A DNA stretch of 64,000 nt from Clostridia bacterium (GCA_045575975.1 JAZNFO010000014.1:1611-65610), one strand, 5' to 3'. Counted from the stretch's first letter, positions 46,176 to 62,691 are shown. Numbers and translations: made by a program. The notes: generated from the letters alone by a model not told the origin.

Positions 46176-47945
46176 TTATTGATTTATCAAAACGGAAATT
46201 CTGTTTAAGATAACAGCAGCTTCTGCCCTTGTGGCATTTCCGTATGGTTTAAAAGTGTTATCCTCATATCCGTTTATAATTTTTTTATTGTGCAGAGCAA
46301 AAACTGCATCCTTTGCATAGTCTCTGATTTCAGCCTGGTCAGTAAAATCCAAGGAACCCTTTATATTATCATCAATAATTTCTTCTTTAACAAGTATGCG
46401 GTATACTAAAACAGCCATATCCTGCCGTGTTATTAAGCTTTCAGGAGCAAATTCATTTTCACTTAAACCTTGTATCAAATCTAATTCTCTTAATATACCT
46501 ATGTCATTATAATAGTATTTTTCAGGAGAAACATCTGAAAAATTATCTTCAAAATCTGCCTTTTTGTTAAGTAGTCTCGAAATCATAACAGCAAACTGCC
46601 CTCTTGTTAATTTCTCCATAACTCCAAAGCTCCCGTCTCCCATACCACTTATTATTCCATTTTTGTGAAGAGCCTTTATATCTTCTTTAGCCCATGGTGC
46701 ATAATCAAGGTCAGAAAAAATGTCTCTTTCTTTGTTGTTTGCAGATGTAACAGCCTTTTTAAATTCAGGGGATTCAATACTTGATAATCTGTAGAGACAG
46801 TAGCCTGAGATATTGTCGTTGTATTTTGCAATATTAATCTGTTTTTCTATTTCAACTATGCCGCTTTCACAAAACCATATACTTTCGGTATCTGTAGTCT
46901 CGGACACCCTGTATGCTGCCTGACCAATATATAATTGAGTTTTTGTACCCTTGCATACATTCGCCCACCAGTCTGTGAGAACTTTATAGTCTGCCCCAGC
47001 ATAACCGATATTCCAGTATATTTGAGGGATAATGTAGTCAATCATATTTTCCATAGCCCATTTTCTGGTGTCTGCATAGGATGAAAAATAAGCTTCTCTG
47101 CCGTTTGTATCACTGCCGTCTTTATGATTTTTCTTGTTTGCCCATATACCCTGGGGACTAACTCCGAACTTGGTAAAAGGATTTGCCTCTTTGATTTTCT
47201 TATTCATTTTAATAATGAGTTCATCAATGTTGTGTCTTCGCCAATCGTCTATATTTTCAAAATCCTTTCCATATTCTGAAAACGACCAGTTATCCGGAAA
47301 ATCCTCCCCCGGATAAAAATAATCATCAATCTGTATTCCATCAACATTGTAGTTTTTAACTATTTCCATTGCACCCTCTGCAACAAAGTCATTTACTTCG
47401 GGAATACCGGGATTAAGATAAAGTTTTCCATTATAATTGATAACCCAATCAGGATGCAAAGCTGAAATGGAATTTTCCGGTTGATTTTCGGTTTCCTGAA
47501 CAGTTGATGTCACTCTGTATGGATTTATCCAGGCATGGATTTTAATGTCATTTTTGTGGCAAATATCAATCATATATTTAAGGGGATCAAAATTGTTGTC
47601 AGGAGCAAGTCCAAATTCCCCTGTCAGGTATTTCGACCAGGGAAAAATTTCTGATTTATAGAAAGCATCAGAGGAGGGGCGAACCTGAAAAAAGATTGTG
47701 TTAAAGCCCATATCTTTTGCATCCTTAACCATTATATCAAGCTCTTTTTTCAAGGTTTTTGAATTCGTTGTAGGATTTTTAGGAAAGTCAAGTGAAAAAA
47801 CCGTGGCAACCCAAACTCCCTTGACGGTGTCTTCTTCTTTTGCATAACTTTTGTCTGTTGATACGGGTATGCCCTGAAGAGAGCTTTGTGCAAAAAAGCA
47901 TCCAAGAAACAGTAGAACCACAATTAGCTTAAATTTATTAATCAT
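46176..47945 (-). CDS. Secreted GH10-like (DUF187/YngK-type) hydrolase with three C-terminal SLH repeats
   Basis: N-terminal signal peptide and a TIM-barrel-like N-terminal two-thirds. The C-terminus has three repeats of the S-layer-homology type (...GIISGMGDGSFG...TRGQFAVM; ...GLSENEFAPE..ITRQDMAV; ...INGYEDNTFKPYGNATRAEAAV). ATG 47945 has better SD spacing than the ORF-track GTG 47954. Confidence 0.75.
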   Translation of the reverse strand: MINKFKLIVVLLFLGCFFAQSSLQGIPVSTDKSYAKEEDTVKGVWVATVFSLDFPKNPTTNSKTLKKELDIMVKDAKDMGFNTIFFQVRPSSDAFYKSEIFPWSKYLTGEFGLAPDNNFDPLKYMIDICHKNDIKIHAWINPYRVTSTVQETENQPENSISALHPDWVINYNGKLYLNPGIPEVNDFVAEGAMEIVKNYNVDGIQIDDYFYPGEDFPDNWSFSEYGKDFENIDDWRRHNIDELIIKMNKKIKEANPFTKFGVSPQGIWANKKNHKDGSDTNGREAYFSSYADTRKWAMENMIDYIIPQIYWNIGYAGADYKVLTDWWANVCKGTKTQLYIGQAAYRVSETTDTESIWFCESGIVEIEKQINIAKYNDNISGYCLYRLSSIESPEFKKAVTSANNKERDIFSDLDYAPWAKEDIKALHKNGIISGMGDGSFGVMEKLTRGQFAVMISRLLNKKADFEDNFSDVSPEKYYYNDIGILRELDLIQGLSENEFAPESLITRQDMAVLVYRILVKEEIIDDNIKGSLDFTDQAEIRDYAKDAVFALHNKKIINGYEDNTFKPYGNATRAEAAVILNRISVLINQ

Positions 47946-47960
47946 AATTTTCACCTCTGT

Positions 47961-48042: not shown

Positions 48043-49086
48043 TTACTGAGATTTAACCTTTGTCCAAAGCTCAGCGCTATATTTTTTTATTTCCGGTTTT
48101 TGATAGTAGAAGCTTTCGTCCTTGTCATAGCCTGTTCTTGGAACATATGCATTAATATCTTTGTAGATATCGTTTTTCATTTCTTCAAAAACAGCTTCAA
48201 CTGATGAACTGTATCCAACCTGTTCAGTGTTCTTTCTTGCATTTTCTTTATCAATCATAAAGTTAATAAATTTATGAGCAAGCTCTTTTTTCTCGCTGGT
48301 TTTTGTGATAACCATACCGTCAATCCAGAAATTTGTACCCTCTTGTGGTTCGTAATATCCAAGATTTTCATTTTCGGACATAATGTATGTTGCATCCCCT
48401 GAATAAACAATAGCTATGCTTTTGTTTCCGGAAATCATATTGTCGATAACATCATCACCAACATAAATTGGATTCATTGTCTGGTTTTGTTCTATAAGCC
48501 ATTCATATGCTTTGTCGAACTCATCCTTATTTTCAGTGTTAAGAGAATAGCCAAGATTTTTGAGCGCTATCATAAAGGAGTCTCTTTCGCTGTCATACAT
48601 ATAGAGCTGGTCTTTATATTTTGTATTTTTAAGAATTCCCCAGCCCTGATTTTTAAGGTCTTCCTCGTCAACCGTTGTTTTGTCATAAAGAATACCAACA
48701 GTACCCCAGAAATAAGGGACAGAGTATTTATTTTCAGGGTCATGGTGCTTGCCCAGAAGTTCTTTTTTTATGCCCTGGTAGTTGGGGATAAGGCTCAGAT
48801 CAATTTCAGAAAGCATATCCTCTTTAACAAGTCTTTCTATCATATAATCAGAAGGAATAATAACATCATAAAGCTCACCGCTGGAAACCTTTGTGTACAT
48901 TGATTCATTAGAATCAAAGGTTTCATATATAACCTTGCAGTTTTCTGCCTTTTCAAATTCCTTTAAAAGTTCAGTGTCAATATATTCACCTGCGTTATAT
49001 ATTTTTATAGATTCTCTGTCATCTTTGCAGGCACAGAATGAAAAAACAATTGAAAGTGTCAATAGGATAATTAAAAATTTTTTCAT
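48043..49086 (-). CDS. potD: Spermidine/putrescine ABC transporter substrate-binding lipoprotein
   Basis: Lipoprotein signal (…SFCAC). PotD-type periplasmic binding protein, 347 aa. Confidence 0.88.
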   Translation of the reverse strand: MKKFLIILLTLSIVFSFCACKDDRESIKIYNAGEYIDTELLKEFEKAENCKVIYETFDSNESMYTKVSSGELYDVIIPSDYMIERLVKEDMLSEIDLSLIPNYQGIKKELLGKHHDPENKYSVPYFWGTVGILYDKTTVDEEDLKNQGWGILKNTKYKDQLYMYDSERDSFMIALKNLGYSLNTENKDEFDKAYEWLIEQNQTMNPIYVGDDVIDNMISGNKSIAIVYSGDATYIMSENENLGYYEPQEGTNFWIDGMVITKTSEKKELAHKFINFMIDKENARKNTEQVGYSSSVEAVFEEMKNDIYKDINAYVPRTGYDKDESFYYQKPEIKKYSAELWTKVKSQ

Positions 49087-49101
49087 AGTAAAAATCCTTT
49101 C

Positions 49102-49908
49102 TTAATATGATTTAGGTTGTATTTCTTTTTTCTTTTTGAATTTAGGAACAAGATTTAAAACTAAAAGTGTTGTTATTATAACAAGTATAACTATTGATGA
49201 AAGAGCGTTGATAGTAGGATTTGTTCGTTTTGTCATATTGTAAACAATAATTGATATATTCATAACACCGTTTCCGCTGACAAAATAAGATATAACAAAA
49301 TCGTCAAAGCTCATAGTGAAGGCAAGAAGAATTCCAGCATAAATTCCCGGTTTTAAAAGGGGAAGAATAACCTTTGTAAGAGCATTATAAGGAGTTGCTC
49401 CAAGGTCCATTGCAGCATTTGCAAGATTCGGGTCAAGCTCACGGATTTTAGGATAAACACTTGTTATAACATAAGGTGTGGAAAAGGATATGTGTGCGAT
49501 AAGCATAGTCAGGTATCCTTTTTCTATTTTCAGGGCTGAGAAAAAAATCATAAGCCCTATTGCTGTTACTATATCAGGATTCATAACGGGAATGTCGTTT
49601 ATGCTTAATATTAGATCCCTGATGACTTTTCTGTTTTTTGAAAGACCGATAGCGGTTATTGTTCCAAGCACAGTTGAAATTAAAGTAGATAAAATAGCGA
49701 TTGTAACACTAACGCTCATTGCCGACATTATATTTGAATCATTTAAAAGCTCTTTATACCATTTAAGAGAAAAACCTGTAAAATGAGTAAGCGACTTTGA
49801 CTCATTAAAAGAAAAAAATACAGTAACAAGTATTGGCAGATAAAAGAATGCAAAGCATAAAAATATGTAAATTGCCGATGGCAGATTATTTAATTTTTTA
49901 AGTCTCAA
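49102..49908 (-). CDS. potC: Spermidine/putrescine ABC transporter permease
   Basis: Six-TM MetI-type permease with an EAA loop (NAAMDLGATP). Confidence 0.88.
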   Translation of the reverse strand: MRLKKLNNLPSAIYIFLCFAFFYLPILVTVFFSFNESKSLTHFTGFSLKWYKELLNDSNIMSAMSVSVTIAILSTLISTVLGTITAIGLSKNRKVIRDLILSINDIPVMNPDIVTAIGLMIFFSALKIEKGYLTMLIAHISFSTPYVITSVYPKIRELDPNLANAAMDLGATPYNALTKVILPLLKPGIYAGILLAFTMSFDDFVISYFVSGNGVMNISIIVYNMTKRTNPTINALSSIVILVIITTLLVLNLVPKFKKKKEIQPKSY

Positions 49909-49925
49909 TCATCTCACTCCTTTCT

Positions 49926-50741
49926 TTATTTTTCCTGTTCAATTTTTTTTGTCATTTTAATAGTGAGCAGAATAACAACTGCTAGCACCATAGAAATTGA
50001 ACTTCCAAAGTTCCAGTCCCCAACGGAAATGAACTGACTTTCAATAAGGTTTCCAAGAAGCACATATTGTCCTCCGCCTAAAAGCTTTGGAATAAGGAAG
50101 CTTGATATTGAAAGAAGAAAAACCATAATTATTCCGTTAACAACCCCCGGAAGAGAAAGCTTGAATGTTACCTTCCAGAACGACTGAATACGATTTGCTC
50201 CAAGGTCAAACGCAGCCTCTTTATAGGATTTATCCATTTTGCTGAGTGCGGTATGTATTGGAATAATCATAAACGGAAGGAAATTACATATCATACCGAT
50301 TATAACTGAAAAGTCCGTGTACATAAGGCTGAGTGTTGGAAGCCCAAGCTTTTCAAGAAGCATATTTAAAAGTCCGTTATCTGCAAGGATGCTTATCCAG
50401 GCATAGGTTCTGAGAAGCATATTAATCCACATAGGTATTGTAACGAATAAAATGAGTATGCTTTGAACCTTTTCTGAATATTTGGATATAAAGTAAGCAA
50501 GAGTATATCCAAATATAAGACAGAAAAAAACGGTTATAAGTCCAATCTTAAATGATTTTAAAAACACATCAAGATAGACAGGCTCAAAAAGTCTTGTAAA
50601 GTTTTTGGTTGTGAACTGAACTGTTATTATAGAGTTCCCGCTTTCTGTAAATGCATAAATGAATATCATAAGAAGGGGAACAAGTATAATAATGGCAGAC
50701 CAGATTATATAAGGCGTAACAAAATTTTTAAAGTATTTCAT
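49926..50741 (-). CDS. potB: Spermidine/putrescine ABC transporter permease
   Basis: MetI-type permease with an EAA loop (EAAFDLGAN). Confidence 0.88.
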   Translation of the reverse strand: MKYFKNFVTPYIIWSAIIILVPLLMIFIYAFTESGNSIITVQFTTKNFTRLFEPVYLDVFLKSFKIGLITVFFCLIFGYTLAYFISKYSEKVQSILILFVTIPMWINMLLRTYAWISILADNGLLNMLLEKLGLPTLSLMYTDFSVIIGMICNFLPFMIIPIHTALSKMDKSYKEAAFDLGANRIQSFWKVTFKLSLPGVVNGIIMVFLLSISSFLIPKLLGGGQYVLLGNLIESQFISVGDWNFGSSISMVLAVVILLTIKMTKKIEQEK

Positions 50742-50757
50742 TTTTTAAACACCCCGC

Positions 50758-51792
50758 CTACATAATCCACATAACATGAATATCATCAGGACCGAAGCTG
50801 AGACCAACATTAAGGCCAACTTCGTGATAATGAGTAGTATGTATCATATAATCACGATATTTGGTTTCAACCATTATTTCATAGTGAACGCCTTTAAATA
50901 TAATTGATTTAACAACACCCCTAAGCTCTGATGCATCCGGGGACACAATGTCAATATCTTCAGGTCTTATAACAATTTCACATGGCTCATTCTCTTTAAA
51001 GCCTTTGTCCACGCATTCAAATTCAATGTCATCAAACTTAACAAGACAGTCTCTTATCATATTACCCTCAATAATGTTAGATTCACCGATGAAGCGGGCA
51101 ACAAATCTGTTTTCTGGTTCGTTGTATATATCGGTTGGTGCACCAATCTGCTGAATTTCGCCATCATTCATAACAACAACAGTATCAGACATAGAAAGAG
51201 CTTCTTCCTGGTCATGGGTAACATAAATAAATGTTATGCCAACCTCTTTCTGGATTTTTTTAAGCTCTATCTGCATTTCTTTTCTGAGCTTGGCATCAAG
51301 TGCACCAAGAGGCTCATCAAGCAGGAGAACCTTTGGCTCATTAATAAGAGCCCTTGCAATTGCAACTCTTTGCTGCTGACCGCCTGAGAGGGAGGTAACA
51401 TCTCTGTTTTCAAAGCCAGAAAGTCCCACAAGCTTAAGCATCTTTTCCACCTTTTGTTTAACAACTGACTTTTCAGTTTTCTTTATGGTAAGTCCAAAAG
51501 CGATATTGTCAAAAACATTAAGGTGAGGGAAAAGGGCATATTTTTGAAAAACAGTATTAATTTCTCTTTTATATGGTGGAAGCTTTGAAATCTCAATTCC
51601 GTCAAACAAAAGCTCTCCGTTGTCTGCATCTTCAAAACCGCCAATAATACGAAGAGTTGTGGTCTTTCCACAACCAGACGGACCAAGAAGAGTCAGAAAT
51701 TCATTTTCATATATCTTAAGGTCTATTCCTTTTAAGACCTGCTGGTCATCAAAGTTTTTTGTTATGTTGCGTAATTCAACCAAAGTGTTCAA
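50758..51792 (-). CDS. potA: Spermidine/putrescine ABC transporter ATPase
   Basis: [17 protein letters not shown] and LLLDEP motifs. Start moved to TTG 51792 (GGAGTGG 8 nt upstream), because the ORF-track 5' extension overlaps the promoter at 51841-51869. Confidence 0.9.
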
Positions 51793-51840
51793 TTTATCAA
51801 CCACTCCAATCAAAAAATAATCAATCACAAAGATACCTTC

Positions 51841-51869
51841 ATTATATAGCATATTCATCAAATAATCAA
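51841..51869 (-). promoter_or_regulatory. Sigma-A promoter of potABCD
   Basis: Minus strand reads TTGATT (51869-51864), a 17-nt spacer, then TATAAT (51846-51841). Confidence 0.7.
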
Positions 51870-51889
51870 GTATTTTGACAAAAATAATT

Positions 51890-51933
51890 GCAAATAAGAA
51901 AAGCGGATTATGGAGATAAGCTCCATAATCCGC
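51890..51933 (-). terminator. Terminator closing the T-box-controlled aryl-acid operon
   Basis: 13-bp perfect stem GCGGATTATGGAG / CTCCATAATCCGC (51933-51921 / 51915-51903 on the minus strand), followed by TTTTCTTATTT. Confidence 0.9.
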
Positions 51934-51945
51934 AGGGGGATAAAC

Positions 51946-52377
51946 CTAAGCTTTATAGATATTATTCATATCAAGAACATTTATGCTGTGTTCTTCAAGC
52001 GTTTTTGCAGCATTTTCAGGGTCTGAACTTTTGATAACAACTATTGCATTGTCGGTGTTTTTTGCAACAAATGCATATAAATAGTCGATTTCAATGTCTT
52101 TTTCCTTAAGCGCCTTAAGTGGTTTTGAAAGTGCGCCCGGCTTATCTTCTATTGCAACAGCTAAAACATCAGTGAGTTTAACAATAAAGCCTTCTTCTTT
52201 CAAAATTTCACGGGCTTTGTCGGGAGAATCAACAATAAGTCTCAAAATTCCGTAATCCGTTGTATCTGCAACAGATAAAGCACTTATATCTATGTTACTT
52301 TTAGCAAGTATATCAAGAACTTCAGCCATTTTGCCGGCCTTATTTTCTATAAAAATTGAAACCTGTTTAATAAACAT
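51946..52377 (-). CDS. Tandem ACT-domain protein
   Basis: 143 aa, two ACT-like beta-alpha-beta-beta-alpha-beta halves. Follows paaK, a pairing I recognise from other anaerobes. Confidence 0.75.
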   Translation of the reverse strand: MFIKQVSIFIENKAGKMAEVLDILAKSNIDISALSVADTTDYGILRLIVDSPDKAREILKEEGFIVKLTDVLAVAIEDKPGALSKPLKALKEKDIEIDYLYAFVAKNTDNAIVVIKSSDPENAAKTLEEHSINVLDMNNIYKA

Positions 52378-52395
52378 AAAATCATTCCTTTCCCA

Positions 52396-53709
52396 TTAAA
52401 TAAGTTTTCGGTTATCAATAACTCTCTTTGCTTTACCTTCACTGCGGGTAATTGTTTTGGGACCAACAAGCTTAACATTTGCCGAAAGACCAAGAACACT
52501 TAAGAGTTTTGAGTGTATTGCCTTTTCAATGCCTGTGATTGTTTTAACATCATCTGCGAAAAGGTCATCGCTCATTTCAACCTGAACTTCAAGAGTATCT
52601 GTGTTGTTAACTCTGTCAACCACAATCAGATAGTTAGGAGTAATTCCCTGGCCGTAATTTAAAAGAACTTCTTCAATCTGAGAGGGGAATACATTAACAC
52701 CTCTTATAATTAACATATCATCGGTTCTGCCTGCGGGCTTCTTCATTCTCACATGTGTTCTTCCGCAGTTACATGGAGTGTAATCAAGTATACATAAATC
52801 ACGGGTACGGTATCTGATAAGAGGTTGACCTTCTTTTGTTATTGTGGTAAACACAAGCTCTCCGAATGAACCTTCCGGTAAAACCTCTCCGGTATCAGGG
52901 TCAATGATTTCAGGGATAAATAAGTCTTCACAAATATGCATACCGCTTTGCTCCGAACATTCATAAGCAACACCGGGGCCCATTATTTCAGTAAGGCCAT
53001 AGATGTCGTATGCTTTAAGTCCGAGGGCATCCTCTATTTGCTTTCTCATATCTTCTGTCCAGGGTTCTGCACCAAAGATACCTGCTTTCAGTTTAAGCTG
53101 GTCTTTAACCCCCATTTCTTTAACTGCTTCTCCAAGATACATAGCGTAGGAGGGGGTACAGCAAAGATGGGTTGTGCCAAGCTCGCACATAAAACGAATT
53201 TGTCTCTCAGTATTTCCTGATGATGTAGGAATAACAGTTGCACCAATTCTTTCAGCACCGCCGTGAGCTCCAAGACCTCCTGTAAACAGTCCATAACCAT
53301 AAGAAACCTGAATTATGGAGTTTTCATCAGCACCGGTTGCAGCAAACTGTCTCGCAACACCATCTGCCCATGTGTCAAGATCGTTTCTGGTATATCCGGC
53401 AACAATTTGTCGTCCTGTTGTTCCGGAAGATGCGTGAATTCTAACTATATCTTTCATTGGAGCTGCAAGCAGTCCAAAAGGATAATAATCTCTCAAATCC
53501 TGCTTGGTTGTAAATGGAAGCTTTGCAAGGTCGGAAAGTGTTTTTATATCTTCTGGTTTAACACCTTTTTCGTCCATTCTTTCTCTGAACATTTTAACAT
53601 TTTCATAAATTCTCTTAACCTGCCACTGAAGTCTTTCGAGTTGAAGCTTCCTGATTTCGCTTCTATCCATACATTCTATTTGTTCATTATAAATTCCCAT
53701 TTTTGACAT
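52396..53709 (-). CDS. paaK: Phenylacetate-CoA ligase family (arylacetate-CoA ligase, AMP-forming)
   Basis: 437 aa. HASSGTTGRQ AMP-binding motif and a compact PaaK-type architecture. Confidence 0.88.
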   Translation of the reverse strand: MSKMGIYNEQIECMDRSEIRKLQLERLQWQVKRIYENVKMFRERMDEKGVKPEDIKTLSDLAKLPFTTKQDLRDYYPFGLLAAPMKDIVRIHASSGTTGRQIVAGYTRNDLDTWADGVARQFAATGADENSIIQVSYGYGLFTGGLGAHGGAERIGATVIPTSSGNTERQIRFMCELGTTHLCCTPSYAMYLGEAVKEMGVKDQLKLKAGIFGAEPWTEDMRKQIEDALGLKAYDIYGLTEIMGPGVAYECSEQSGMHICEDLFIPEIIDPDTGEVLPEGSFGELVFTTITKEGQPLIRYRTRDLCILDYTPCNCGRTHVRMKKPAGRTDDMLIIRGVNVFPSQIEEVLLNYGQGITPNYLIVVDRVNNTDTLEVQVEMSDDLFADDVKTITGIEKAIHSKLLSVLGLSANVKLVGPKTITRSEGKAKRVIDNRKLI

Positions 53710-53728
53710 TCCTTTCTATTAAGAACGA

Positions 53729-54295
53729 TTAAAGATTATATCCAAGTTCAAAAGCTTTCAGGTTAGCTTCAAGAAATTTTTCAGGAACAGTATCTTTAAT
53801 AACCTCTGTCCAAACATCATATTTAATGTCTGTGTTCTTTGCCATAACGCCGATTAAGGCAACATTCACAGCTTTTATATTTCCTGCCTTTTCAGCAAGT
53901 GAAAGAGCATCAACTGTAGTAAGATCAAGCTTTTCGGAAAGTTTCTTTTCGATGTCTGCAGGATATTCTGCATTTCCGCATATAACAGGCATTGGGTCAA
54001 TCTGCTGATTATTTGCAATCATTTTTCCGCCTTTTTTAAGGAATGGTATGCTTCTGTATGCTTCAAGCATTTCAAAAGCAAGGATAATGTCTGCTTCACC
54101 CTTGTCAATTATAGGAGAATAAACTTTATCGCCAAATTTAACATATGTAACAACACTTCCGCCACGCTGACTCATACCGTGTACTTCGGAAATTTTAACA
54201 TCATATCCTTCGGAAATAACAGCCTTACCAATAATTCTGCTAGCAAGAAGAGTTCCTTGTCCGCCAACACCAACAATCATTATATTCTTTGTCAT
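53729..54295 (-). CDS. iorB: Indolepyruvate/arylpyruvate:ferredoxin oxidoreductase, beta subunit
   Basis: IMIVGVGGQGTLLAS N-terminus. Start moved to ATG 54295 behind GGAGG. Confidence 0.88.
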   Translation of the reverse strand: MTKNIMIVGVGGQGTLLASRIIGKAVISEGYDVKISEVHGMSQRGGSVVTYVKFGDKVYSPIIDKGEADIILAFEMLEAYRSIPFLKKGGKMIANNQQIDPMPVICGNAEYPADIEKKLSEKLDLTTVDALSLAEKAGNIKAVNVALIGVMAKNTDIKYDVWTEVIKDTVPEKFLEANLKAFELGYNL

Positions 54296-54300
54296 AACAA

Positions 54301-56034
54301 TTAATCCTCCTTTTCTATAGCACCGAAAGGACATACATTAACACATAGTCCGCAGCCGTTACACTGAGTTTTATCAATAACAATTTTATCGCCCTTCTGA
54401 GAAATTGCAGGGCATCCAAGCTTCATACAAAGCTTACATTTTTTACATTTGTCTGAAATTTTACATGTTCCGCTATATTTAACTGATTTTAAAAGCGCAC
54501 AAGGTCTCTGCGCAATAATAACTGACGGTTCATTTGCTTCTGTTTCTTCTTTAACAACCTTTTCAAAGTTTTTGATGTCAAATGGATCTGCAACAACAAC
54601 TCTGTCGATACCTACTGCCTTGCAGAGGGCTAAAAGGTCAACCTGCTTTGTAGGTTCTTTTCTGATTGTAAAGCCGGTTGTTGGGTTATCCTGATGACCT
54701 GTCATACCGGTAATAGAGTTGTCAAGGATAATAACTGTGTTATTTCCTTTATTATAAACAATATCAATAAGACCTGTAATACCTGAATGCATAAAGGTTG
54801 AGTCACCGATTACAGCAACTAATTTTTTGTTAAATTCTTCACCTCTTGCCTTTGCCATACCGTGAGCACCGCTGACACTGGCACCCATACAAACTGTTGT
54901 GTCAACGCTTGCAAGAGGAGGAACAGCACCCAGGGTGTAACAGCCAATATCACCTGAAACAACAAGTCTAAGCTTGTTTAAAACATAGAAAGTTCCTCTG
55001 TGAGGACATCCGGGACAAAGAACAGGAGGTCTTGCAGGGATGCTTTCTTCTATGTTTTCAAATTCATTTGCATCTTCACCGAAAACAACTTTTTTTATCA
55101 TTGAGGGAGTATATTCTCCAAGAAGAGTAAAGGCTTCTTTTCCTATAACCTCCACTCCAAGGGATTTTATGTATTCTTCAAAGAACGGGTCAAGCTCTTC
55201 AACAACATAAACCTTTTTGCACTTTGATGCAAAATCCTTAATAAGCTTTTCTGGAAGAGGATAAACCATGCCAAGTTTTAAGTAGTTAACTCTGTCTCCC
55301 AAAGCTTCTTTTGAATACATATATGAAATACCTGATGTGATAATGCCGATTTCTGAATTGTTGTATTCTGCATTGTTGAATTCACAGTCTTCAGCAAATG
55401 CTTCCAAAGCCTTAATTCTGTCTTCAACAACAACATGGCGTTTTATGGCATTGCCGGGCATCATAACATTTTTGCCGATATTTTTTTCATATGGCTTAAG
55501 CTCGTAATTTTCTCTCGGTAATTCTTCAACAAGTCCTTGAGAATGAGAAATTCTTGTGGAAAGACGAAGAATAACGGGAGTATCAAATTTTTCACTAAGC
55601 TCATATGCTTTTTTTGTAAAATCTTTGCATTCAGCACTGTCGGATGGCTCAAGCATCATAATTTTTGAAGCCTTTGCATAATGTCTTGAATCCTGCTCAT
55701 TCTGTGAAGAATGCATTCCGGGGTCATCTGCAACGCAGAAAACAAGACCGCCGTTTACACCTATGTAGCTTACAGTAAACATAGGGTCAGCCATAACGTT
55801 CATACCAACATGCTTCATACAAGCCATACTTCTTGCACCTGCAATTGATGCACCAATTGCAACCTCTGCAGCAACCTTTTCATTTGGTGACCATTCTGCG
55901 TATATTTCTTCAAATTTAACAATATTTTCAGTTATTTCTGTGCTTGGAGTTCCGGGATAGGATGCAACAACACTGACTCCCGCCTCGTAGGCACCTCTGG
56001 CAACTGCTTCGTTACCAATCATAAGTCTTTTCAT
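54301..56034 (-). CDS. iorA: Indolepyruvate/arylpyruvate:ferredoxin oxidoreductase, alpha subunit
   Basis: 577 aa. TPP motif GDSTFMHSG and C-terminal 2x[4Fe-4S] (CKKCKLCMKLGCPA; CNGCGLCVNVCP). Confidence 0.9.
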   Translation of the reverse strand: MKRLMIGNEAVARGAYEAGVSVVASYPGTPSTEITENIVKFEEIYAEWSPNEKVAAEVAIGASIAGARSMACMKHVGMNVMADPMFTVSYIGVNGGLVFCVADDPGMHSSQNEQDSRHYAKASKIMMLEPSDSAECKDFTKKAYELSEKFDTPVILRLSTRISHSQGLVEELPRENYELKPYEKNIGKNVMMPGNAIKRHVVVEDRIKALEAFAEDCEFNNAEYNNSEIGIITSGISYMYSKEALGDRVNYLKLGMVYPLPEKLIKDFASKCKKVYVVEELDPFFEEYIKSLGVEVIGKEAFTLLGEYTPSMIKKVVFGEDANEFENIEESIPARPPVLCPGCPHRGTFYVLNKLRLVVSGDIGCYTLGAVPPLASVDTTVCMGASVSGAHGMAKARGEEFNKKLVAVIGDSTFMHSGITGLIDIVYNKGNNTVIILDNSITGMTGHQDNPTTGFTIRKEPTKQVDLLALCKAVGIDRVVVADPFDIKNFEKVVKEETEANEPSVIIAQRPCALLKSVKYSGTCKISDKCKKCKLCMKLGCPAISQKGDKIVIDKTQCNGCGLCVNVCPFGAIEKED

Positions 56035-56069
56035 AAAAACTCCTCCTGTTATTCTATTTAATAAATCAG

Positions 56070-57701
56070 CTATTTTATCTGCGCCGACACAAGGCTTTCC
56101 CCACAGTAGATTTTTCTAAGCTTTGGTTTCTCAATTTTTCCGGTAGGATTTCTTGGAACCTCTGTAAATATGATTTTTCTTGGTCTCTTATATTTTGGAA
56201 GTGCCTTGCAGAATGCATTCATTTCTTCTTCGCTGCACTGGGCATCCTCTTTAAGTTCTATGATGGCAGCTGCAATTTCACCAAGTCTCTGGTCAGGAAG
56301 TCCGATAACTGCAACATCTTTAACCTTGGTATTTGTTCTTATAAAGTCTTCAATCTGAACAGGGTAAAGGTTTTCACCGCCTGAAATAATAACATCTTTC
56401 TTTCTGTCAACAAGATATATAAAGCCATCTTCATCCATTTCAGCCATATCACCGGTGAAAAGCCATCCGTCGGCTAAAACTTCATTTGTTGATTTTTCGT
56501 CGTTGTAATAGCAGGTCATAACACCGGGTCCTTTAACAGCAAGTTCTCCAACCTCGCCCTTTTTTACTTCCTGTCTGTTTTCATCAACAATTTTAACTTC
56601 CCAGCCAAAGCCTGCTTTTCCGATAGCTCCAACCTTGTGTTCATTTTCTATTCCAAGGTGAACGCATCCAGGTCCAATAGATTCGCTGAGACCGTAGTTT
56701 GTATCATACTGATGATTTGGGAAGACTTTTTTCCATCGCTTAATCAAGCTTGGAGGAACAGGCTGTGCACCAATGTGCATAAGTCTCCATTTTGAAAGGT
56801 CATAATCCTTAAGGTCGATTTCTCCGCTTTCAATTGCATCTAAAATATCCTGTGCCCACGGAACCAAAAGCCACACAATACTGCAGCTTTCCTCGGAGGC
56901 GGCCTTAATAATCCATTCAGGCTTAATACCCTTTAGTAAAACAGCCTTTGAGCCTGAATAAAGGCTTCCAAACCAATGCATTTTTGCCCCTGTATGATAG
57001 AGGGGAGGGATGCAAAGGAACACATCATCTCTTGTCTGTCCGTGGTGGTTTTGTTCTGTTTTTGCAGCGTGCAAAATACTTTCGTGATTATGAAGAATTG
57101 CTTTTGGAAATCCTGTTGTACCTGATGAAAAATAAATTGCTGCATTATCTTCTTCGGTCAGCTTAATATCAGGATTTTTACTTGAACAATATGTAACAAG
57201 CTTGTCATAGCTTTCAGCAAAAGTCGGACAATTCTTTCCAACATAGAACATTTGCTTGATTTTGGGAATTGAATCACAGATTTCTTCAACACGGCCTATA
57301 AACTCAGGACCAAAAATAAGTGCATCTGAATCCGAAAGGTCAAGACAATAGCGGATTTCATCGGATGTGTATCTGTAATTAAGAGGAACAGCAAGTGCTC
57401 CTGTTTTCAAAATACCAAAATAAATGGGAAGCCATTCAAGACAGTTCATAAGAAGAATTGAAACCTTATCTCCTTTTTTTATTCCTCTGGAAAGAAGAAG
57501 GTTTGCAAAACAGTTTGCTCTTTTGTTAAACTCTCCCCAGGTAATTTCCTGTCTTCCGCTTTCTTCGGGGTTTGGCTGAATAAGAGCATATTCCTTCCAT
57601 GTCATTCTGGTTGTGTCTATTAAGCTGGGAGCAATTTCAACAAGAGATGTTTCATCTTTAAAATCTCTTGCATTTCTCTCAAGTAAATCAGTTATAACCA
57701 T
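56070..57701 (-). CDS. Class I adenylate-forming acyl-CoA ligase (FadD-like; substrate unknown)
   Basis: 543 aa. YFSSGTTGFPKA, TGD and GKIEKPKLR motifs. Confidence 0.85.
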   Translation of the reverse strand: MVITDLLERNARDFKDETSLVEIAPSLIDTTRMTWKEYALIQPNPEESGRQEITWGEFNKRANCFANLLLSRGIKKGDKVSILLMNCLEWLPIYFGILKTGALAVPLNYRYTSDEIRYCLDLSDSDALIFGPEFIGRVEEICDSIPKIKQMFYVGKNCPTFAESYDKLVTYCSSKNPDIKLTEEDNAAIYFSSGTTGFPKAILHNHESILHAAKTEQNHHGQTRDDVFLCIPPLYHTGAKMHWFGSLYSGSKAVLLKGIKPEWIIKAASEESCSIVWLLVPWAQDILDAIESGEIDLKDYDLSKWRLMHIGAQPVPPSLIKRWKKVFPNHQYDTNYGLSESIGPGCVHLGIENEHKVGAIGKAGFGWEVKIVDENRQEVKKGEVGELAVKGPGVMTCYYNDEKSTNEVLADGWLFTGDMAEMDEDGFIYLVDRKKDVIISGGENLYPVQIEDFIRTNTKVKDVAVIGLPDQRLGEIAAAIIELKEDAQCSEEEMNAFCKALPKYKRPRKIIFTEVPRNPTGKIEKPKLRKIYCGESLVSAQIK

Positions 57702-57715
57702 AAGTTAAACTCCTT

Positions 57716-58504
57716 TTATATATTTAAAAGTTTCATTGCGTTTTTATAATAAATTTTATCTTTTTCATCATTTGATAATCCTAAGAAATCAATCAGCTTC
57801 ATTTCAAAGGACGGCTTGTGCCAGGGACAGTCAGAACCAAAAAGAATTTTATCAGTTCCATGCTTTTCTATAATTTTGACGGCTGATGGTTTTGGTATTG
57901 TTCCGTAACCAAAAGCTATGTCAAAATATACAGGAAGAGAGCAAAGCTCTTTTATAACCCCCTCGGAACAGCTTTGTCCGCCCCAGTGTGCTGCAACAAC
58001 AGGAGACGAAAACCATTTAAGGGCATTCTTTATATTCTCAGGCATTGCGTGATAGGGTGGTGGATAGCCACAGTCAAATCCTGCATGGAATATAGTTATA
58101 AGCCCTAATTCAGAAATTTTTTTGTATATGGGCTTCATCTTTTCGTCATCAACATAAAAGCCTTGATATTCGGGATGAAATTTAACACCTTTTAAGCCTG
58201 CATCTTTTATCCTCTCCAGTTCATAAAGGGCATCAGGTGCATCAGGATGAACAGAACCAAATGCGACAAATCTTTCGTCCTTGTTTTGTTCTATAAGGAA
58301 GTCATTAACATTTTTTTGCTGATTGATGTTTGTGGCAATTCCAAGAACAACAGAAATATCTACTCCCGATTCATCCATAGCCTGTTTGAGCCCGCGGACT
58401 GTTCCGTCTGTATAAGGCTCAAGAGCAGAGGTGTGGCTTAAAATATCCATAGCTCTTGATGCAATTTTATCAGGAAATGCATGTGTGTGAAAATCAATAA
58501 CCAT
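57716..58504 (-). CDS. Amidohydrolase_2-type metal-dependent hydrolase/decarboxylase-fold protein
   Basis: 262 aa. N-terminal IDFHTH metal ligands, and later HPEYQG, FHAG and FGSDCPW motifs typical of the TIM-barrel amidohydrolase_2 group. Confidence 0.7.
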   Translation of the reverse strand: MVIDFHTHAFPDKIASRAMDILSHTSALEPYTDGTVRGLKQAMDESGVDISVVLGIATNINQQKNVNDFLIEQNKDERFVAFGSVHPDAPDALYELERIKDAGLKGVKFHPEYQGFYVDDEKMKPIYKKISELGLITIFHAGFDCGYPPPYHAMPENIKNALKWFSSPVVAAHWGGQSCSEGVIKELCSLPVYFDIAFGYGTIPKPSAVKIIEKHGTDKILFGSDCPWHKPSFEMKLIDFLGLSNDEKDKIYYKNAMKLLNI

Positions 58505-58522
58505 AGAAAAGTCCTTTCAGTT

Positions 58523-60067
58523 TTAGTTGCCAAGTGATTCCTTTGATAAAACAGTAACAGGTGCATCATAGCACATAAAAATATCATCAATAGTTTCCGT
58601 TGATAGCTTTTTAGTGAATATACTGAATACAGGAACTATAACTAATCCGCCAAGCATTGCAATAACACCGCAGTTAATAGGTGATTGCATAATAACAGGG
58701 AACATCGGACGGAAAAGCATATTTAAAATCATAATGCCAGCCCCAAAAATAAAGCTAGCCCAAACGGAAGTTTTTGTAGCCTTTTTCCAGTATAATCCAT
58801 AAAGGAAAGGTGCAAGAAAAGCTCCTGCAAGTGCACCCCAGGAAATACCCATCATATCAGCAATTGCACTTAGTTTATCCTTGTTTATAGCGATATATGC
58901 AGAGATTGCAACAAAAACAACAATAAGTATTCTCATTGTAAGTAATTGTTTTTTCTCATTCATGTCTTTTATAATATGACCTTTTAAAAGGTCAAGAGTG
59001 AGTGTTGAACTTGATGTTAAAACAAGAGATGAAAGGGTAGACATTGATGCAGAAAGCACCAATATAATAACAATTGCAATTAAAATATCAGGAAGACCTG
59101 AAAGCATAGTCGGTATAATTGAGTCAAATCCCCCTTCAATGGAGCCGTTTGGCAGGAATGTAAGATTATCCGTAAAAAGTCTGCCGAAACCGCCGAGGAA
59201 ATAACAACCTCCTGCAACGATAGTTGCAAATACAGTTGAAATAATTGTGCCCTTGTTTATATCTTTTTCGCTTTTTATAGCATAGAATTTTTGAACCATC
59301 TGTGGAAGTCCCCAGGTGCCGAGAGATGTTAATATAACAACAAACAAAAGTCCAAGAGGGTCAGGCCCGAAGAAGGAATTGAATACCCCCGGAGCAAGAC
59401 CATCTGCTTCTATTCTTGCAAGGCCTTCAAGAGACTCTATAAATCCTCCGTTTTTTGAAAGAACTGCAAATATAACCATAACGATACCGATAAGCATAAT
59501 TATACCTTGGATAAAGTCATTTATAGCAGTTGCCATATATCCTCCGGCAATAACATAAATGCCGGTGAGAATTGCCATTATTATAACACAAACGGAATAA
59601 TCAATGTTTGGAAATGCCATGGAGAAAAGTCTTGAAAGTCCGTTGTAAAGAGATGCGGTGTATGGTATTAAAAACACAAATACGATAATAGCTGCGGCAA
59701 TTTTAAGTGACGGGCTTAAATATCTTTTTCCAAAAAATTCAGGCATAGTGGATGATTTTAAATGCTGAGACATAAGCCTTGTTCGTCTGCCTAAAACAAC
59801 CCAGGCAAGCAGTGAACCTAAAAATGCATTACCAAGACCAATCCAGGTTGATGCAACGCCAAATTTCCATCCAAATTGTCCTGCATAACCTACGAATATT
59901 ACTGCTGAAAAATATGATGTACCATATGCAAAGGCAGTAAGCCAGGGGCCAACATTTCTTCCGCCAAGAACAAAGCCTGAAACATCTGTAGCATTGCGAC
60001 GACAGTAGATTCCTATACCAACGGTAACTGAGAAAAACACGATAAGTAATAAAATTTTGATAGCCAT
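58523..60067 (-). CDS. Sodium:solute symporter (SSS) family transporter
   Basis: 514 aa, about 13 TM helices. The N-terminal GGRNVGPWLTAFAYGTSYFSA motif is characteristic of SSS carriers. Confidence 0.85.
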   Translation of the reverse strand: MAIKILLLIVFFSVTVGIGIYCRRNATDVSGFVLGGRNVGPWLTAFAYGTSYFSAVIFVGYAGQFGWKFGVASTWIGLGNAFLGSLLAWVVLGRRTRLMSQHLKSSTMPEFFGKRYLSPSLKIAAAIIVFVFLIPYTASLYNGLSRLFSMAFPNIDYSVCVIIMAILTGIYVIAGGYMATAINDFIQGIIMLIGIVMVIFAVLSKNGGFIESLEGLARIEADGLAPGVFNSFFGPDPLGLLFVVILTSLGTWGLPQMVQKFYAIKSEKDINKGTIISTVFATIVAGGCYFLGGFGRLFTDNLTFLPNGSIEGGFDSIIPTMLSGLPDILIAIVIILVLSASMSTLSSLVLTSSSTLTLDLLKGHIIKDMNEKKQLLTMRILIVVFVAISAYIAINKDKLSAIADMMGISWGALAGAFLAPFLYGLYWKKATKTSVWASFIFGAGIMILNMLFRPMFPVIMQSPINCGVIAMLGGLVIVPVFSIFTKKLSTETIDDIFMCYDAPVTVLSKESLGN

Positions 60068-60124
60068 AATAAATATACTCCTTTTTTTGATATCAAAGGA
60101 CGCGTTTTATTAGCCGACCGAATA

Positions 60125-60405
60125 AAATAAAAAACGCCCTCTGAATTTTAATCAGAGGGCGAGAAATATCCCGCGGTACCACCTCAGTTCACTGTCATCT
60201 CACGGTGACAGCCTTGTAAGTATCAGACAATACTTATGTGCTGTAACGGGCACTCCCGTAGTAGCCTACTTAAAATAAAATTTTGTTCGGTACTCTGCTC
60301 GCAGAATGTATTCAAAATGCATCCATTTCTGTCTCGCACCAAACGACAGCTCTCTCAAAACTTCACACATTTTTACTATTTTCCGGTCATGGCATTTATT
60401 ATACT
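60125..60405 (-). promoter_or_regulatory. T-box riboswitch leader, specifier codon UAC (Tyr)
   Basis: All on the minus strand. Stem I has a K-turn (UGC-CAU-GA / GA-GCA). The specifier loop has 5' AGUA (60377-60374) and 3' GAA-UAC-A, with the codon at 60310-60308. AG bulge GAGAGAGC and distal loop UUUGGUGCGAG are present, as is an F-box CCGUUA. The T-box core GGUGGUACCGCG is at 60183-60172. A terminator CGCCCUCUGA-loop-UCAGAGGGCG plus U6 (60161-60129) follows. Confidence 0.9.
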
Positions 60406-60409
60406 AAAA

Positions 60410-60438
60410 ATAATATCACAGCTTAGTCCTTGTGTCAA
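60410..60438 (-). promoter_or_regulatory. Sigma-A promoter driving the T-box leader
   Basis: Minus strand reads TTGACA (60438-60433), a 17-nt spacer ending in TGa, then TATTAT (60415-60410). Confidence 0.75.
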
Positions 60439-60475
60439 GAACTTTTTTGTATTTTCTTAGTAATTTTTAGCAGTT

Positions 60476-61312
60476 TTAATCTATTATCATATTAGCATCT
60501 GTATCAAAGATATTATCAAGCCACTCTGTTGCAAGATTTATCCATTTTGCAGCATGAGGATCTAAAAGTTCTCTGATATCTGTTTCTTTGTCTACGGTTG
60601 AAAGTCCGTGAGTGCCTTTTGTAAATATATGCATTTCAAAAGGTATGTCATTTTTCTTAAGTGCATTTGCAAACAAAAGTGAATTTTCAACGGGGACAGC
60701 ATTATCTTCCATAGTGTGCCAGATAAATGTTGGAGGAGTATCCTTTGAAACTCTGTTTTCAAGAGATAAATATTCAAGCATTTCTTTATCATCTTTTCTG
60801 TCTCCAAGAAGATTGTTAAAAGAACCTCTGTGTGCCTTTTCTCCGCTTGAAATAACGGGGTATGAAAGGATTAATGCATTTGGCTTGTTTGATTTGTCAG
60901 CACATTTAATCGACTCTTCTGAATTCCAGAGTGTGCCGATGCTTGCTGTAAGATGTCCCCCGGCAGAAAAACCGCAAACTGCAATTTTATCAGGATCAAC
61001 ATTCCATTTTTCTGCATTCTCTCTGATTAGTTTCAAACTATTTGAAACTTCTTCAAGAGCCGTTGGAAAAACACAAGGAGACACACTATAATTAATAACA
61101 AAGGCGTGATAGCCTGCAGCATTAAATCTTATTGCAATAGGTTCTGCTTCTATGGGGCTACAGAATGCATATCCGCCCCCCGGACAAATAAGAACAGCAG
61201 GGCGTTTTCTTGGTATTTCCGGTCTCAATGTTTCATCAAGCACATATGTAGTTAATGTCGGAATGAAACCGTTTTTATTTGGTTCTCTTAGGTTTATGGT
61301 TTCGAAATTCAT
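60476..61312 (-). CDS. Alpha/beta-hydrolase esterase (Aes/HSL-like)
   Basis: Oxyanion PGGGY, nucleophile elbow GFSAGGH, and a C-terminal His in THGL. Confidence 0.8.
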   Translation of the reverse strand: MNFETINLREPNKNGFIPTLTTYVLDETLRPEIPRKRPAVLICPGGGYAFCSPIEAEPIAIRFNAAGYHAFVINYSVSPCVFPTALEEVSNSLKLIRENAEKWNVDPDKIAVCGFSAGGHLTASIGTLWNSEESIKCADKSNKPNALILSYPVISSGEKAHRGSFNNLLGDRKDDKEMLEYLSLENRVSKDTPPTFIWHTMEDNAVPVENSLLFANALKKNDIPFEMHIFTKGTHGLSTVDKETDIRELLDPHAAKWINLATEWLDNIFDTDANMIID

Positions 61313-61323
61313 TATTATATCTC

Positions 61324-62691
61324 CTATCTTTCGCTTATCGGTGTGTACGAACTTCTCTTAACAACATTTTTATAAGCAGGTCTTATTATTTTTCCGCCTG
61401 TCATAATTTCTTCGATTCTGTGGGCACACCAACCAACAATTCTTGCCATAGCAAATATTGGAGTATAAAGTTCTTCCGGAATGTTAAGCATCTGATAAAT
61501 AAAGCCTGAATAAAAGTCAACATTTGCAGGCATAGGAGCGGTGATGCCCTTAACATTATAAAATGCTTCAGGAGCTTTTTCTTCAATCAGATTGTATAGA
61601 TTAAATTCATCCATTCTGCCTGTTTCTCCGGCAAGCTTTCTTGCACATTCTTTTAAGATAACAGCCCTGGGGTCTGATAATGTGTAGATTGCATGGCCAA
61701 TACCATAGATAAGACCTGACTTGTCTCCGGCTTCTTTTTTTAGTATTTTTTCAAGATAAGCAAGAACCTCTTTTTCGTCAGTCCAGTTTTTAACATTTTC
61801 TTCTATTTCTTTCATCTGGGTTAGAGTCTTTGCATTGGCACCGCCGTGTTTTGGTCCTTTTAATGAACCAATGGCTGCTGCAACAGAAGAATATGTATCG
61901 GTGTTGCTTGATGATAAAACCCTGATAGTAAAAGCAGAGTTATTACCACCACCATGTTCTGCGTGAAGCATCAAGCATAGGTCCAGAACCTCTGCTTCAA
62001 GCTTTGTGTATTTATGGTTTGCCCTTGTCATATAGAAGAAATTCTCAGCTATTGAAAGCTCCGGATTCGGGTTATGCAGAACAAGACTTTTATGGTCGTA
62101 GTAATGACATTTTGCAGCATATGCATATGCAATAAGTGTTGGAAAACGGGCAATAAGATTAAGACTCTGGCGAAGCAGGTCATCAAGTTCTATGCTGTCG
62201 GGATTTTTGGTGTCATATGAATAAAGTGCAAGAACACTTCTTGCAAGCTTGTTCATAATGTTATCACTGGGAGCCTTTAAAATCATATCCTCTGCAAAAT
62301 TTTCAGGTAATGTTCGTTTTTTTGAAAGCATTGATGTGAATTTGTCGAGCTGTTCTCTGTTTGGTAGAAAACCAAATGTAAGAAGAAAAACAACTTCTTC
62401 AAAACCGTATCGGCCTTCTTTCTGGCAACTTCTGACAATGTCTTCAATGCTTATTCCGCGGTATCTCAGTGTTCCTTCAATGGGAGATTTTGCACCCTCA
62501 TCAAGAACATATCCGTGAACCTCGCCAATAGCAGTAAGCCCTGCAAGAACACCTGTACCGTCAGGGTTTCTGAGTCCTCTTTTAACATTATATTCACCAT
62601 AAAAATGGGAAGGAATATTTTCAAATGATTTGTTTTGATGTGTTATGTGCTGTATGTATTCTGTCAAAGATTCTCTCATAAGTTTGGGCAC
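61324..62691 (-). CDS. Citrate synthase
   Basis: 455 aa. LHAEHGGGNNSAF and GPKHGGAN motifs. Confidence 0.9.
   Translation of the reverse strand: MPKLMRESLTEYIQHITHQNKSFENIPSHFYGEYNVKRGLRNPDGTGVLAGLTAIGEVHGYVLDEGAKSPIEGTLRYRGISIEDIVRSCQKEGRYGFEEVVFLLTFGFLPNREQLDKFTSMLSKKRTLPENFAEDMILKAPSDNIMNKLARSVLALYSYDTKNPDSIELDDLLRQSLNLIARFPTLIAYAYAAKCHYYDHKSLVLHNPNPELSIAENFFYMTRANHKYTKLEAEVLDLCLMLHAEHGGGNNSAFTIRVLSSSNTDTYSSVAAAIGSLKGPKHGGANAKTLTQMKEIEENVKNWTDEKEVLAYLEKILKKEAGDKSGLIYGIGHAIYTLSDPRAVILKECARKLAGETGRMDEFNLYNLIEEKAPEAFYNVKGITAPMPANVDFYSGFIYQMLNIPEELYTPIFAMARIVGWCAHRIEEIMTGGKIIRPAYKNVVKRSSYTPISER

Follow-up and report, generated by a model that had tools for sequence, protein, structure and literature searches.

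This report concerns a stretch of 64,000 nucleotides (nt) from a Clostridia bacterium (GCA_045575975.1 JAZNFO010000014.1:1611-65610; the whole stretch is called the window below), in which seven minus-strand genes between positions 51,890 and 60,438 lie behind a T-box leader RNA with a tyrosine specifier. The predicted operon encodes a sodium:solute symporter, an Amidohydrolase_2 enzyme, a FadD-like acyl-coenzyme A (CoA) ligase, the alpha and beta subunits of an indolepyruvate:ferredoxin oxidoreductase (IOR; IorA and IorB, together IorAB), a PaaK-like ligase and a tandem-ACT protein. Judged from its sequence, the operon probably serves the tyrosine-starvation-inducible salvage of 4-hydroxyphenylacetate (4-HPA) into tyrosine by reductive carboxylation. 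Apparently new is the position of a standard T-box over what is predicted to be a non-standard tyrosine supply route of the reductive-carboxylation type. The analysis established the anatomy of the T-box and its tyrosine specifier, how the operon is built, to which family IorAB belongs and that the linkage is conserved across species.

T-box leader and operon structure

The leader matched the Rfam T-box family RF00230 over the full covariance model (60399..60152, model positions 1-219 of 219) with 126 bits, compared with a gathering score of 93 (E 1.5e-27), and is an ordinary member of this family. Stem I contained the K-turn, the AGAGA motif and the distal-loop motifs (GCCAUGA...CGAGC, AGAGA, UGGUG). 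In the covariance-model alignment, the specifier loop with its S-turn (AGUA / GAA-UAC-A) carried GAA-UAC-A on the 3' side, directly before the closing helix UUCUG/CGGAA, and the codon was followed by the conserved purine. The preliminary description of this DNA would have been undone by a non-aromatic specifier; the codon found was UAC, for tyrosine. The UGGU bulge of the T-box sequence would pair with the tRNA 3' end ACCA and is compatible with a discriminator A. The 5' arm of the leader terminator overlapped the 3' arm of the antiterminator, with CGCCCUC common to both, and the antiterminator with its UGGN bulge and the intrinsic terminator compete as in other T-boxes. The minimum-free-energy fold of the leader included the terminator hairpin, which corresponds to the default OFF state.

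Calling of open reading frames (ORFs) gave seven genes on the minus strand with intergenic gaps of 18, 14, 35, 5, 19 and 18 nt, in order. The longest ORF of the fifth gene, iorB, overlaps iorA; a start based on the sequence, the ATG at 54295, was used instead. It lies 5 nt past the iorA stop and is served by an AAGGAGG ribosome-binding site within the end of iorA, and IorB is predicted to be translationally coupled to iorA across this 5-nt gap. In the region 51000-61500, the promoter at 60438..60410 outranked all other promoter hits; it is located 11 nt 5' of the start of the Rfam match. The two top terminators of the region were the one in the leader (hairpin 60161..60135) and the one behind the ACT gene (51933..51903), with 13 pairs and a T-tract. 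Terminator-like matches within the operon were weak, having 3-4 GC pairs and poor T tails. All structural claims made earlier agreed with these data, namely close packing with gaps of 5-35 nt, no hairpin with U-tract between the genes, one near-consensus promoter with a T-box leader in front and one strong terminator behind. Promoter-like matches numbered 41 compared with a shuffle expectation of 31.8 +/- 5.1, which is only a modest excess, and internal promoters or terminators are neither supported nor excluded by the sequence. The downstream potA gene has a promoter-like site of its own (51869..51841). It belongs to a potABCD-like polyamine ATP-binding cassette transporter operon (48043-51861, minus strand), and its ATPase, with 595 bits, is above the cutoff of 550 of MMSYN1_0197, an equivalog model derived from Mycoplasma.

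Table 1. Predicted features of the operon and of related loci; positions refer to the window unless locus L064 (Roseburia intestinalis) is named.
Feature	Position	Strand	Description
Sigma-70-type promoter	60410..60438	-	TTGACA-17 nt-TATTAT, extended -10 TG; 11/12 matches
T-box leader RF00230	60152..60399	-	Stem I, K-turn, specifier loop, Stem II/IIA-B, Stem III, antiterminator; Rfam
Specifier codon UAC (Tyr)	60308..60310	-	GAA of S-turn before, conserved purine A (60307) after
T-box sequence GGUGGUACCGCG	60172..60183	-	contains UGGU bulge 60181..60178; motif recurs in relatives
Leader intrinsic terminator	60125..60161	-	CGCCCUCUGA-loop-UCAGAGGGCG + U-tract; 10 pairs, 7 GC; hairpin 60161..60135
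SSS/SSF sodium:solute symporter, 514 aa	58523-60067	-	PF00474, E 4e-56
Amidohydrolase_2 TIM-barrel metalloenzyme, 262 aa	57716-58504	-	PF04909
FadD/4CL-class AMP-forming acyl-CoA ligase, 543 aa	56070-57701	-	AMP-binding + AMP-binding_C
IorA, IOR alpha subunit	54301-56034	-	POR_N, TPP_enzyme_C, Fer4 (2x[4Fe-4S])
IorB, IOR beta subunit	53729-54295	-	NF005325 290.6 bits, cutoff 230
PaaK-family arylacetate-CoA ligase (AMP-forming), 437 aa	52396-53709	-	TIGR02155 540 bits
Tandem-ACT protein (ACT_8 pair), 143 aa	51946-52377	-	PF19571, E 5e-32; PDB 2f06 3e-32
Operon intrinsic terminator	51903..51933	-	13-bp stem then UUUUCUUAUU; strongest terminator of the region
Class-I aminotransferase, MocR-domain/KAT/LysN type	40355-41548	+	outside operon; 51% identical to L064 aminotransferase
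Conserved multi-pass membrane protein, 226 aa	L064 12355-13035		between iorB and paaK
Class-I aminotransferase, 396 aa, + family-I inorganic pyrophosphatase	L064 14857-16599

Conservation of the T-box linkage

For the comparison with relatives, IorA was searched against one genome per GTDB species, which gave 80 loci of 20 kb with 65-85% identity. All 80 iorA loci were from gut and rumen Clostridia, cultured or uncultured; the record titles included Roseburia intestinalis, Agathobacter sp., Faecalibacterium sp. UBA1762, Oscillospiraceae, Acutalibacteraceae, Monoglobales and many entries named "Clostridia bacterium". Gene content was mapped by tblastn with the proteins of the window, and T-boxes were detected with an nhmmer profile built from leaders that had been found via the T-box core motif.

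An orthologous full-length T-box leader was present in 25 of the 80 loci, located 17-119 nt 5' of the first operon gene. The genomes bearing it included Lachnospiraceae-labelled ones (R. intestinalis, Agathobacter), Oscillospiraceae, Acutalibacteraceae and Faecalibacterium sp. UBA1762. When nhmmer-positive loci were checked with Rfam, 12 were all over the gathering score and a 13th (L058) was under it. The specifier position was occupied by UAC in all 26 aligned leaders (26/26), followed by A in 22 and by G in one, and the flanking helices varied. No T-box was found in an Rfam scan of 19 loci lacking an nhmmer match, no divergent T-box in a relaxed nhmmer run on loci lacking a match, and no T-box of any specificity in an Rfam scan of 8 loci without the FadD-like ligase. 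A tyrosine T-box in front of ligase-iorAB(-paaK-ACT), whose recurrence in relatives had been open to a search, was thus recovered in 25 other species-level genomes, 12 of them confirmed by Rfam.

The FadD-like ligase gene was found directly 5' of iorA in 55/80 loci, and PaaK-ACT followed iorB in most. Association of the T-box with this ligase was evaluated for those loci that had at least 350 nt of upstream sequence. The T-box was present in 25/47 operons with the FadD-like ligase versus 0/20 without it (Fisher p = 1.3e-5). The first gene behind the T-box was a symporter ortholog in 13/25 loci and the FadD-like ligase in the other 12. PaaK-ACT was included in 20/25 T-box loci, and the remaining five operons stopped after iorB. 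Because the T-box is tied to the ligase, twelve of its loci are free of the symporter and five lack PaaK, the conserved regulated core is predicted to be T-box(Tyr)-FadD-like ligase-IorA-IorB, usually followed by PaaK-ACT, and the symporter and the amidohydrolase are lineage-specific additions. This shifts the emphasis of the preliminary description, in which the tyrosine T-box was linked to iorAB-paaK: the IorAB part stands, but iorAB-paaK operons without the ligase never have a T-box. Likewise, the symporter and the amidohydrolase are present in the operon of the window as described, but the former is missing from about half of the T-box operons, and the latter occurs only in the closest relatives and in one further locus (L078).

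A different, conserved leader was found in orthologous T-box-less operons of the order symporter-ligase-iorAB that are led by a paralogous symporter (L008 6560-6720, L017 6640-6756, L023 6630-6749, L079 ~6540-6675, L010 ~6330-6412, L006 ~2330-2410, L076 ~780-806). Immediately behind the -10 box it carries the 8-nt repeat GTAGTAYNG in tandem; a second motif, (G/C)AGWAYGGAAGGAYGG, overlaps the ribosome-binding site. As the two sites resemble each other and are not complementary, the leader points to a regulatory site bound by a protein (as RNA or DNA) in place of the T-box.

Gene products

IorA, with its 2x[4Fe-4S] domain at the C-terminus, scored 752.3 bits against the alpha-subunit equivalog model TIGR03336 (cutoff 650.9), and IorB, which has a POR gamma-type domain and is encoded adjacent to it, was likewise above the cutoff of its beta-subunit model (Table 1). 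By these models IorAB belongs to the IOR family, with predicted activity on arylpyruvates/arylacetyl-CoA. The nearest structure to the FadD-like ligase, an enzyme forming adenosine monophosphate (AMP), was FadD13 (5e-72). This protein is a candidate 4-HPA-CoA ligase; 4-HPA was assigned to it on the sole ground that it associates exclusively with the tyrosine sensor. Enzymes of the 4CL/ACSM class do activate arylacetates, e.g. the fungal phenylacetate-CoA ligase and human ACSM2.

The PaaK-like protein was structurally closest to Burkholderia PaaK1 (2y27, 2e-133) and to 4r1l of B. thetaiotaomicron (3e-121). It stayed below the equivalog cutoff of TIGR02155 (540 bits versus 646.3), and its substrate specificity is therefore not to be assumed. 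With the exception of this protein, the enzymes of the operon are ordinary members of their families. The ACT gene comes next in almost every locus with PaaK, and its product presumably acts as a regulator of PaaK that binds a small molecule; a literature search for a ligand of the 2f06 ACT protein yielded none. The symporter scored under all equivalog cutoffs (PutP, PanF, ActP) and is a candidate importer of an aryl acid or of tyrosine.

The metal ligands of the amidohydrolase (H6/H8, H140, H173, D225) were complete and all invariant, and its AlphaFold2 model had a pLDDT of 94. The nearest folds (TM 0.7-0.77) were of the non-oxidative aromatic decarboxylase/hydratase branch (ACMSD/LigW/gamma-resorcylate decarboxylase subfamily) and comprised gamma-resorcylate, 2,3-dihydroxybenzoate and 5-carboxyvanillate decarboxylases, IDCase, ACMSD and LigJ. 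Since identity to them was only 15-22%, no function was assigned from the fold. Pre-processing of a phenolic acid is possible. The gene is part of the operon only in the five closest relatives (L002, L003, L004, L009, L014). A distant Amidohydrolase_2 paralog of 36% identity is encoded behind ACT in the T-box operon of L078 (13999-14877). Given the different operon positions and the distance between the paralogs, an enzyme of this type is taken to have joined the operon at least twice, independently. Genomic context elsewhere was considered as a guide to its function and discarded: homologs of ~65% identity adjoin glycerate kinase or HSP90 and have no IOR link.

A gene for a BD-FAE / lp_1002-like arylesterase (60476-61312, minus strand) adjoins the T-box promoter on its 5' side in the same orientation, and homologs are found near the operon in L032, L044 and L050. 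This neighbour may be a coincidence or a supplier of free phenolic acids.

Roseburia unit and aminotransferases

The locus of R. intestinalis (L064) forms one predicted unit from a promoter with 12/12 consensus matches (8015-8043) to a strong terminator (16613-16636), in the order T-box-ligase-IorA-IorB-membrane protein-PaaK-ACT-aminotransferase-inorganic pyrophosphatase. By its gene content it would encode a complete aryl-acid-to-amino-acid route. The aminotransferase was closest to Pyrococcus ArAT-II/PH0207, the Thermococcus multiple-substrate aminotransferase, Thermus LysN and human KAT II, which are broad aromatic/aminoadipate enzymes. An aminotransferase gene was found inside the operon in 14 related loci, of the L064 type behind ACT in 12 and of a different class-I type behind iorB in two. 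In the window, the class-I aminotransferase is encoded outside the operon, flanked by gltX (38879-40339) and trpS (41578-42603), and may catalyse the final transamination; this link to the operon is deduced from the similarity of the enzyme to that of L064. No T-box was found in front of this trpS.

The 226-aa membrane protein matched no Pfam or NCBIfam family. Its gene is also located between iorB and paaK in L048, L058, L060, L062, L065, L069 and L071, and behind ACT in L032. Operons with this gene have no symporter gene before the ligase, and the protein is a candidate aryl-acid permease. A second T-box, for phenylalanine or tryptophan, had been considered for the gap of ~700 nt between iorB and paaK in loci of the Lachnospiraceae type; the gap is filled by the gene of this membrane protein.

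Proposed pathway and direction of flux

The following sequence of events is proposed, in which import, activation, carboxylation and transamination are taken from enzyme families and precedent. Uncharged tRNA-Tyr would bind the leader by pairing to its UAC specifier and its UGGU bulge, stabilise the antiterminator and, as is known of the T-box family, allow the polymerase to read into the seven genes. The symporter would take up an aryl acid; the most likely one is 4-HPA, a plentiful compound in gut and rumen. The FadD-like ligase, as the main activator, would convert 4-HPA to its CoA thioester; the PaaK-like ligase may perform the same step or act on phenylacetate or indoleacetate instead. 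With reduced ferredoxin and CO2, IorAB would carboxylate the thioester to 4-hydroxyphenylpyruvate, and a class-I aminotransferase, encoded elsewhere in this genome and within the operon in relatives, would form tyrosine. The tandem-ACT protein probably modulates PaaK upon binding of a small molecule, and the amidohydrolase would be accessory to the salvage operon.

The anabolic interpretation put forward in the preliminary description is supported by the conservation of the tyrosine T-box in 25 species, by the aminotransferases within 14 of the operons and by the pyrophosphatase of Roseburia, which would pull ligation forward. IOR and two AMP-forming ligases of presumed aryl-acid specificity occur together in the operon. 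Together with the pyrophosphatase, the aminotransferase and the starvation sensor, the two ligases make up a coherent biosynthetic set, as far as can be predicted.

Several points weigh against this interpretation. In 22 of the 47 ligase-containing operons there is no T-box, plain promoters or the different leader being found in its place, and starvation control is therefore not universal. The FadD-like ligase matched no equivalog; its NCBIfam matches were to generic acyl-CoA ligases only and all under cutoff. For the symporter and the FadD-like ligase only candidate substrates can be named, and for the amidohydrolase no more than a possible phenolic acid. IOR is reversible, an aminotransferase is neutral as to direction, and the operon of the window itself encodes no aminotransferase. 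The homologous IOR of Bacteroides contributes to phenylacetate production from phenylalanine, according to a study as cited in PMC13285125. A phenylacetate-type ligase, PaaK, under a sensor for tyrosine only is unexplained by the salvage model.

A rival reading is a more general salvage of aromatic amino acids (phenylalanine, tyrosine, tryptophan) or of a wider range of 2-oxoacids, with the charging of tRNA-Tyr as a sentinel for the whole group and with IorAB and both ligases recycling more than one aryl or acyl acid. All three arylpyruvates are substrates of IORs (PMC13285125), the two ligases in the one operon are of different classes, PaaK homologs activate phenylacetate, and PaaK-ACT is predicted to be co-transcribed in 20/25 T-box loci. 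Such a broad role is nevertheless unlikely: all 26 leaders specify UAC, no T-box for phenylalanine or tryptophan was found at any scanned locus, and the T-box follows the FadD-like ligase and not PaaK, which suggests a tyrosine-specific step.

The conventional annotation of iorAB-paaK clusters is catabolic. Applied to the present operon, this would mean oxidative fermentation of tyrosine via 4-hydroxyphenylpyruvate and, by IOR, 4-HPA-CoA to 4-HPA, with the AMP-forming ligases running backwards or serving otherwise and an incidental T-box linkage. The contribution of the Bacteroides IOR to phenylacetate formation, in the form in which PMC13285125 cites it, would fit, and the oxidative pathway, too, has aminotransferase plus IOR as its first half. 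To induce the breakdown of an amino acid in response to its uncharged tRNA would be counter-productive, yet the wiring was kept in 25 species. Pfam and NCBIfam searches of the window operon revealed no phosphotransacylase (Pta)/kinase or ADP-forming synthetase, the ATP-conserving partners in this type of metabolism (PMC13285125), and none was found among the ORFs scanned in relatives. The pyrophosphatase of the Roseburia unit, moreover, would remove the pyrophosphate needed for reversal of an AMP-forming ligase. A catabolic operon is thus very improbable.

Least credible is control by the T-box of the first gene only, as a tyrosine importer of the SSF family with the other genes using internal promoters or hitch-hiking, for although T-box-regulated transporters are common (PMC2494555) and weak promoter-like hexamers occur within the operon, 12/25 T-box loci are without symporter and have the leader 17-119 nt before the FadD-like ligase gene, and the genes of the window are only 5-35 nt apart with no terminator between them.

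Comparison to known systems

T-boxes are, to our knowledge, mostly confined to Firmicutes. Tyrosine-related T-box genes described there are tyrS and, in the B. cereus group, a tyrosine biosynthesis operon and phenylalanine-4-hydroxylase (PMC2494555). The present leader belongs to the same riboswitch class and has the same anatomy and UAC specifier (PMC2494555), and in both cases uncharged tRNA-Tyr would turn on tyrosine-supply genes. The targets differ: the known ones are a synthetase, a shikimate/prephenate enzyme, a hydroxylase or a plain amino-acid transporter, none of which is found here, whereas the genes behind the present leader encode an oxidoreductase for 2-oxoacids that depends on ferredoxin, together with an acyl-CoA ligase; targets of this class do not appear in PMC2494555.

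That rumen anaerobes turn aryl acids into aromatic amino acids by reductive carboxylation is physiological knowledge dating from the 1960s; for phenylacetate in rumen bacteria it reportedly comes from the work of Allison. We know of no study in which the bacterial genes for this reaction and their regulation were pinned down. Rumen cultures form phenylalanine from phenylacetate (PMC7356843). In Methanococcus maripaludis, aryl acids feed the synthesis of aromatic amino acids via IOR (MMP0713/0714), as reported by Porat et al. in the form cited in PMC4162585. The chemistry proposed for the salvage operon is the same, i.e. CoA activation of an arylacetate, carboxylation by IOR with reduced ferredoxin and transamination. 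In contrast to the route of M. maripaludis, it is bacterial, is encoded in one operon with a second, FadD-class ligase, a dedicated importer and an amino-acid-specific RNA sensor, and is known from genes alone.

Closest in gene content is the iorAB-paaK cluster of Bacteroides (PaaK structures 4r1l/4rvn), which also comprises IorA, IorB, a PaaK-type ligase and a 2f06-like ACT pair. For this cluster, the AMP-forming arylacetate-CoA ligase has been confirmed, and an anabolic role was suggested by the authors in 2026 (PMC13285125). Unlike the operon of the window, it has no known T-box, no FadD-like ligase has been described in it, and its IOR has been linked to phenylacetate production. The chemistry is thus not new, with archaeal and rumen precedent and with an anabolic IOR plus AMP-forming ligase already suggested for Bacteroides. 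The preliminary description knew of no earlier account of the regulatory linkage. A literature search revealed no link of a T-box to IOR or to aryl-acid ligases, although one may already be listed in a regulon table, and no FadD-like ligase as a tyrosine-linked partner of IOR.

Oxidative clusters are represented by HpdDEFG, HpdJ and HpdK in C. scatologenes and by an IOR with kinase in C. difficile (PMC13285125). They share a ferredoxin-dependent arylpyruvate oxidoreductase and the intermediate 4-HPA-CoA with the present operon. The Clostridium clusters add phosphate acyltransferase plus kinase, or ADP-forming ligases, and conserve ATP in this way; the operon of the window has two AMP-forming ligases and a starvation sensor instead.

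Implications for aromatic acid metabolism

In microbiome studies, iorAB and paaK are routinely scored as markers of producers of phenylacetate, 4-HPA and indoleacetate. These acids are precursors of phenylacetylglutamine and p-cresol, 4-HPA being that of p-cresol. A conserved, amino-acid-specific starvation switch offers independent, sequence-derived evidence on the direction of flux, and its linkage nominates an unannotated ligase family as the tyrosine-specific step. Tentatively, the module T-box(Tyr)-FadD-like ligase-IorAB may be a dedicated tyrosine-salvage device widespread in gut and rumen Clostridia, with the highly conserved FadD-like proteins as an unrecognised family of 4-HPA-CoA ligases. 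If this were true, many metagenomic iorAB genes now counted as degradation of aromatic amino acids would run biosynthetically, and the commensals that carry them would consume 4-HPA rather than produce aryl acids. Models of aromatic-acid flux in gut and rumen would change if this were confirmed. R. intestinalis is a culturable carrier in which the pathway is directly testable, and sixty-year-old physiology is thereby turned into a genetic hypothesis.

Further observations

Two other RNA elements near related loci are apparently unrelated to the operon, a flavin mononucleotide (FMN) riboswitch just 3' of the ACT gene in L010 (17128-17243) and an RT-14 RNA match in L063 (18289-18465). The window, with a GC content of 36.6%, furthermore encodes a tRNA-Pro(GGG) (158-234, minus strand), a GTP-dependent phosphoenolpyruvate carboxykinase (43731-45500, plus strand), a GHL10 glycosyl-hydrolase-like protein with three SLH domains (46176-47954, minus strand), a citrate synthase (61324-62691, minus strand) and sporulation genes, e.g. 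that for YqfD at 26156-27373.

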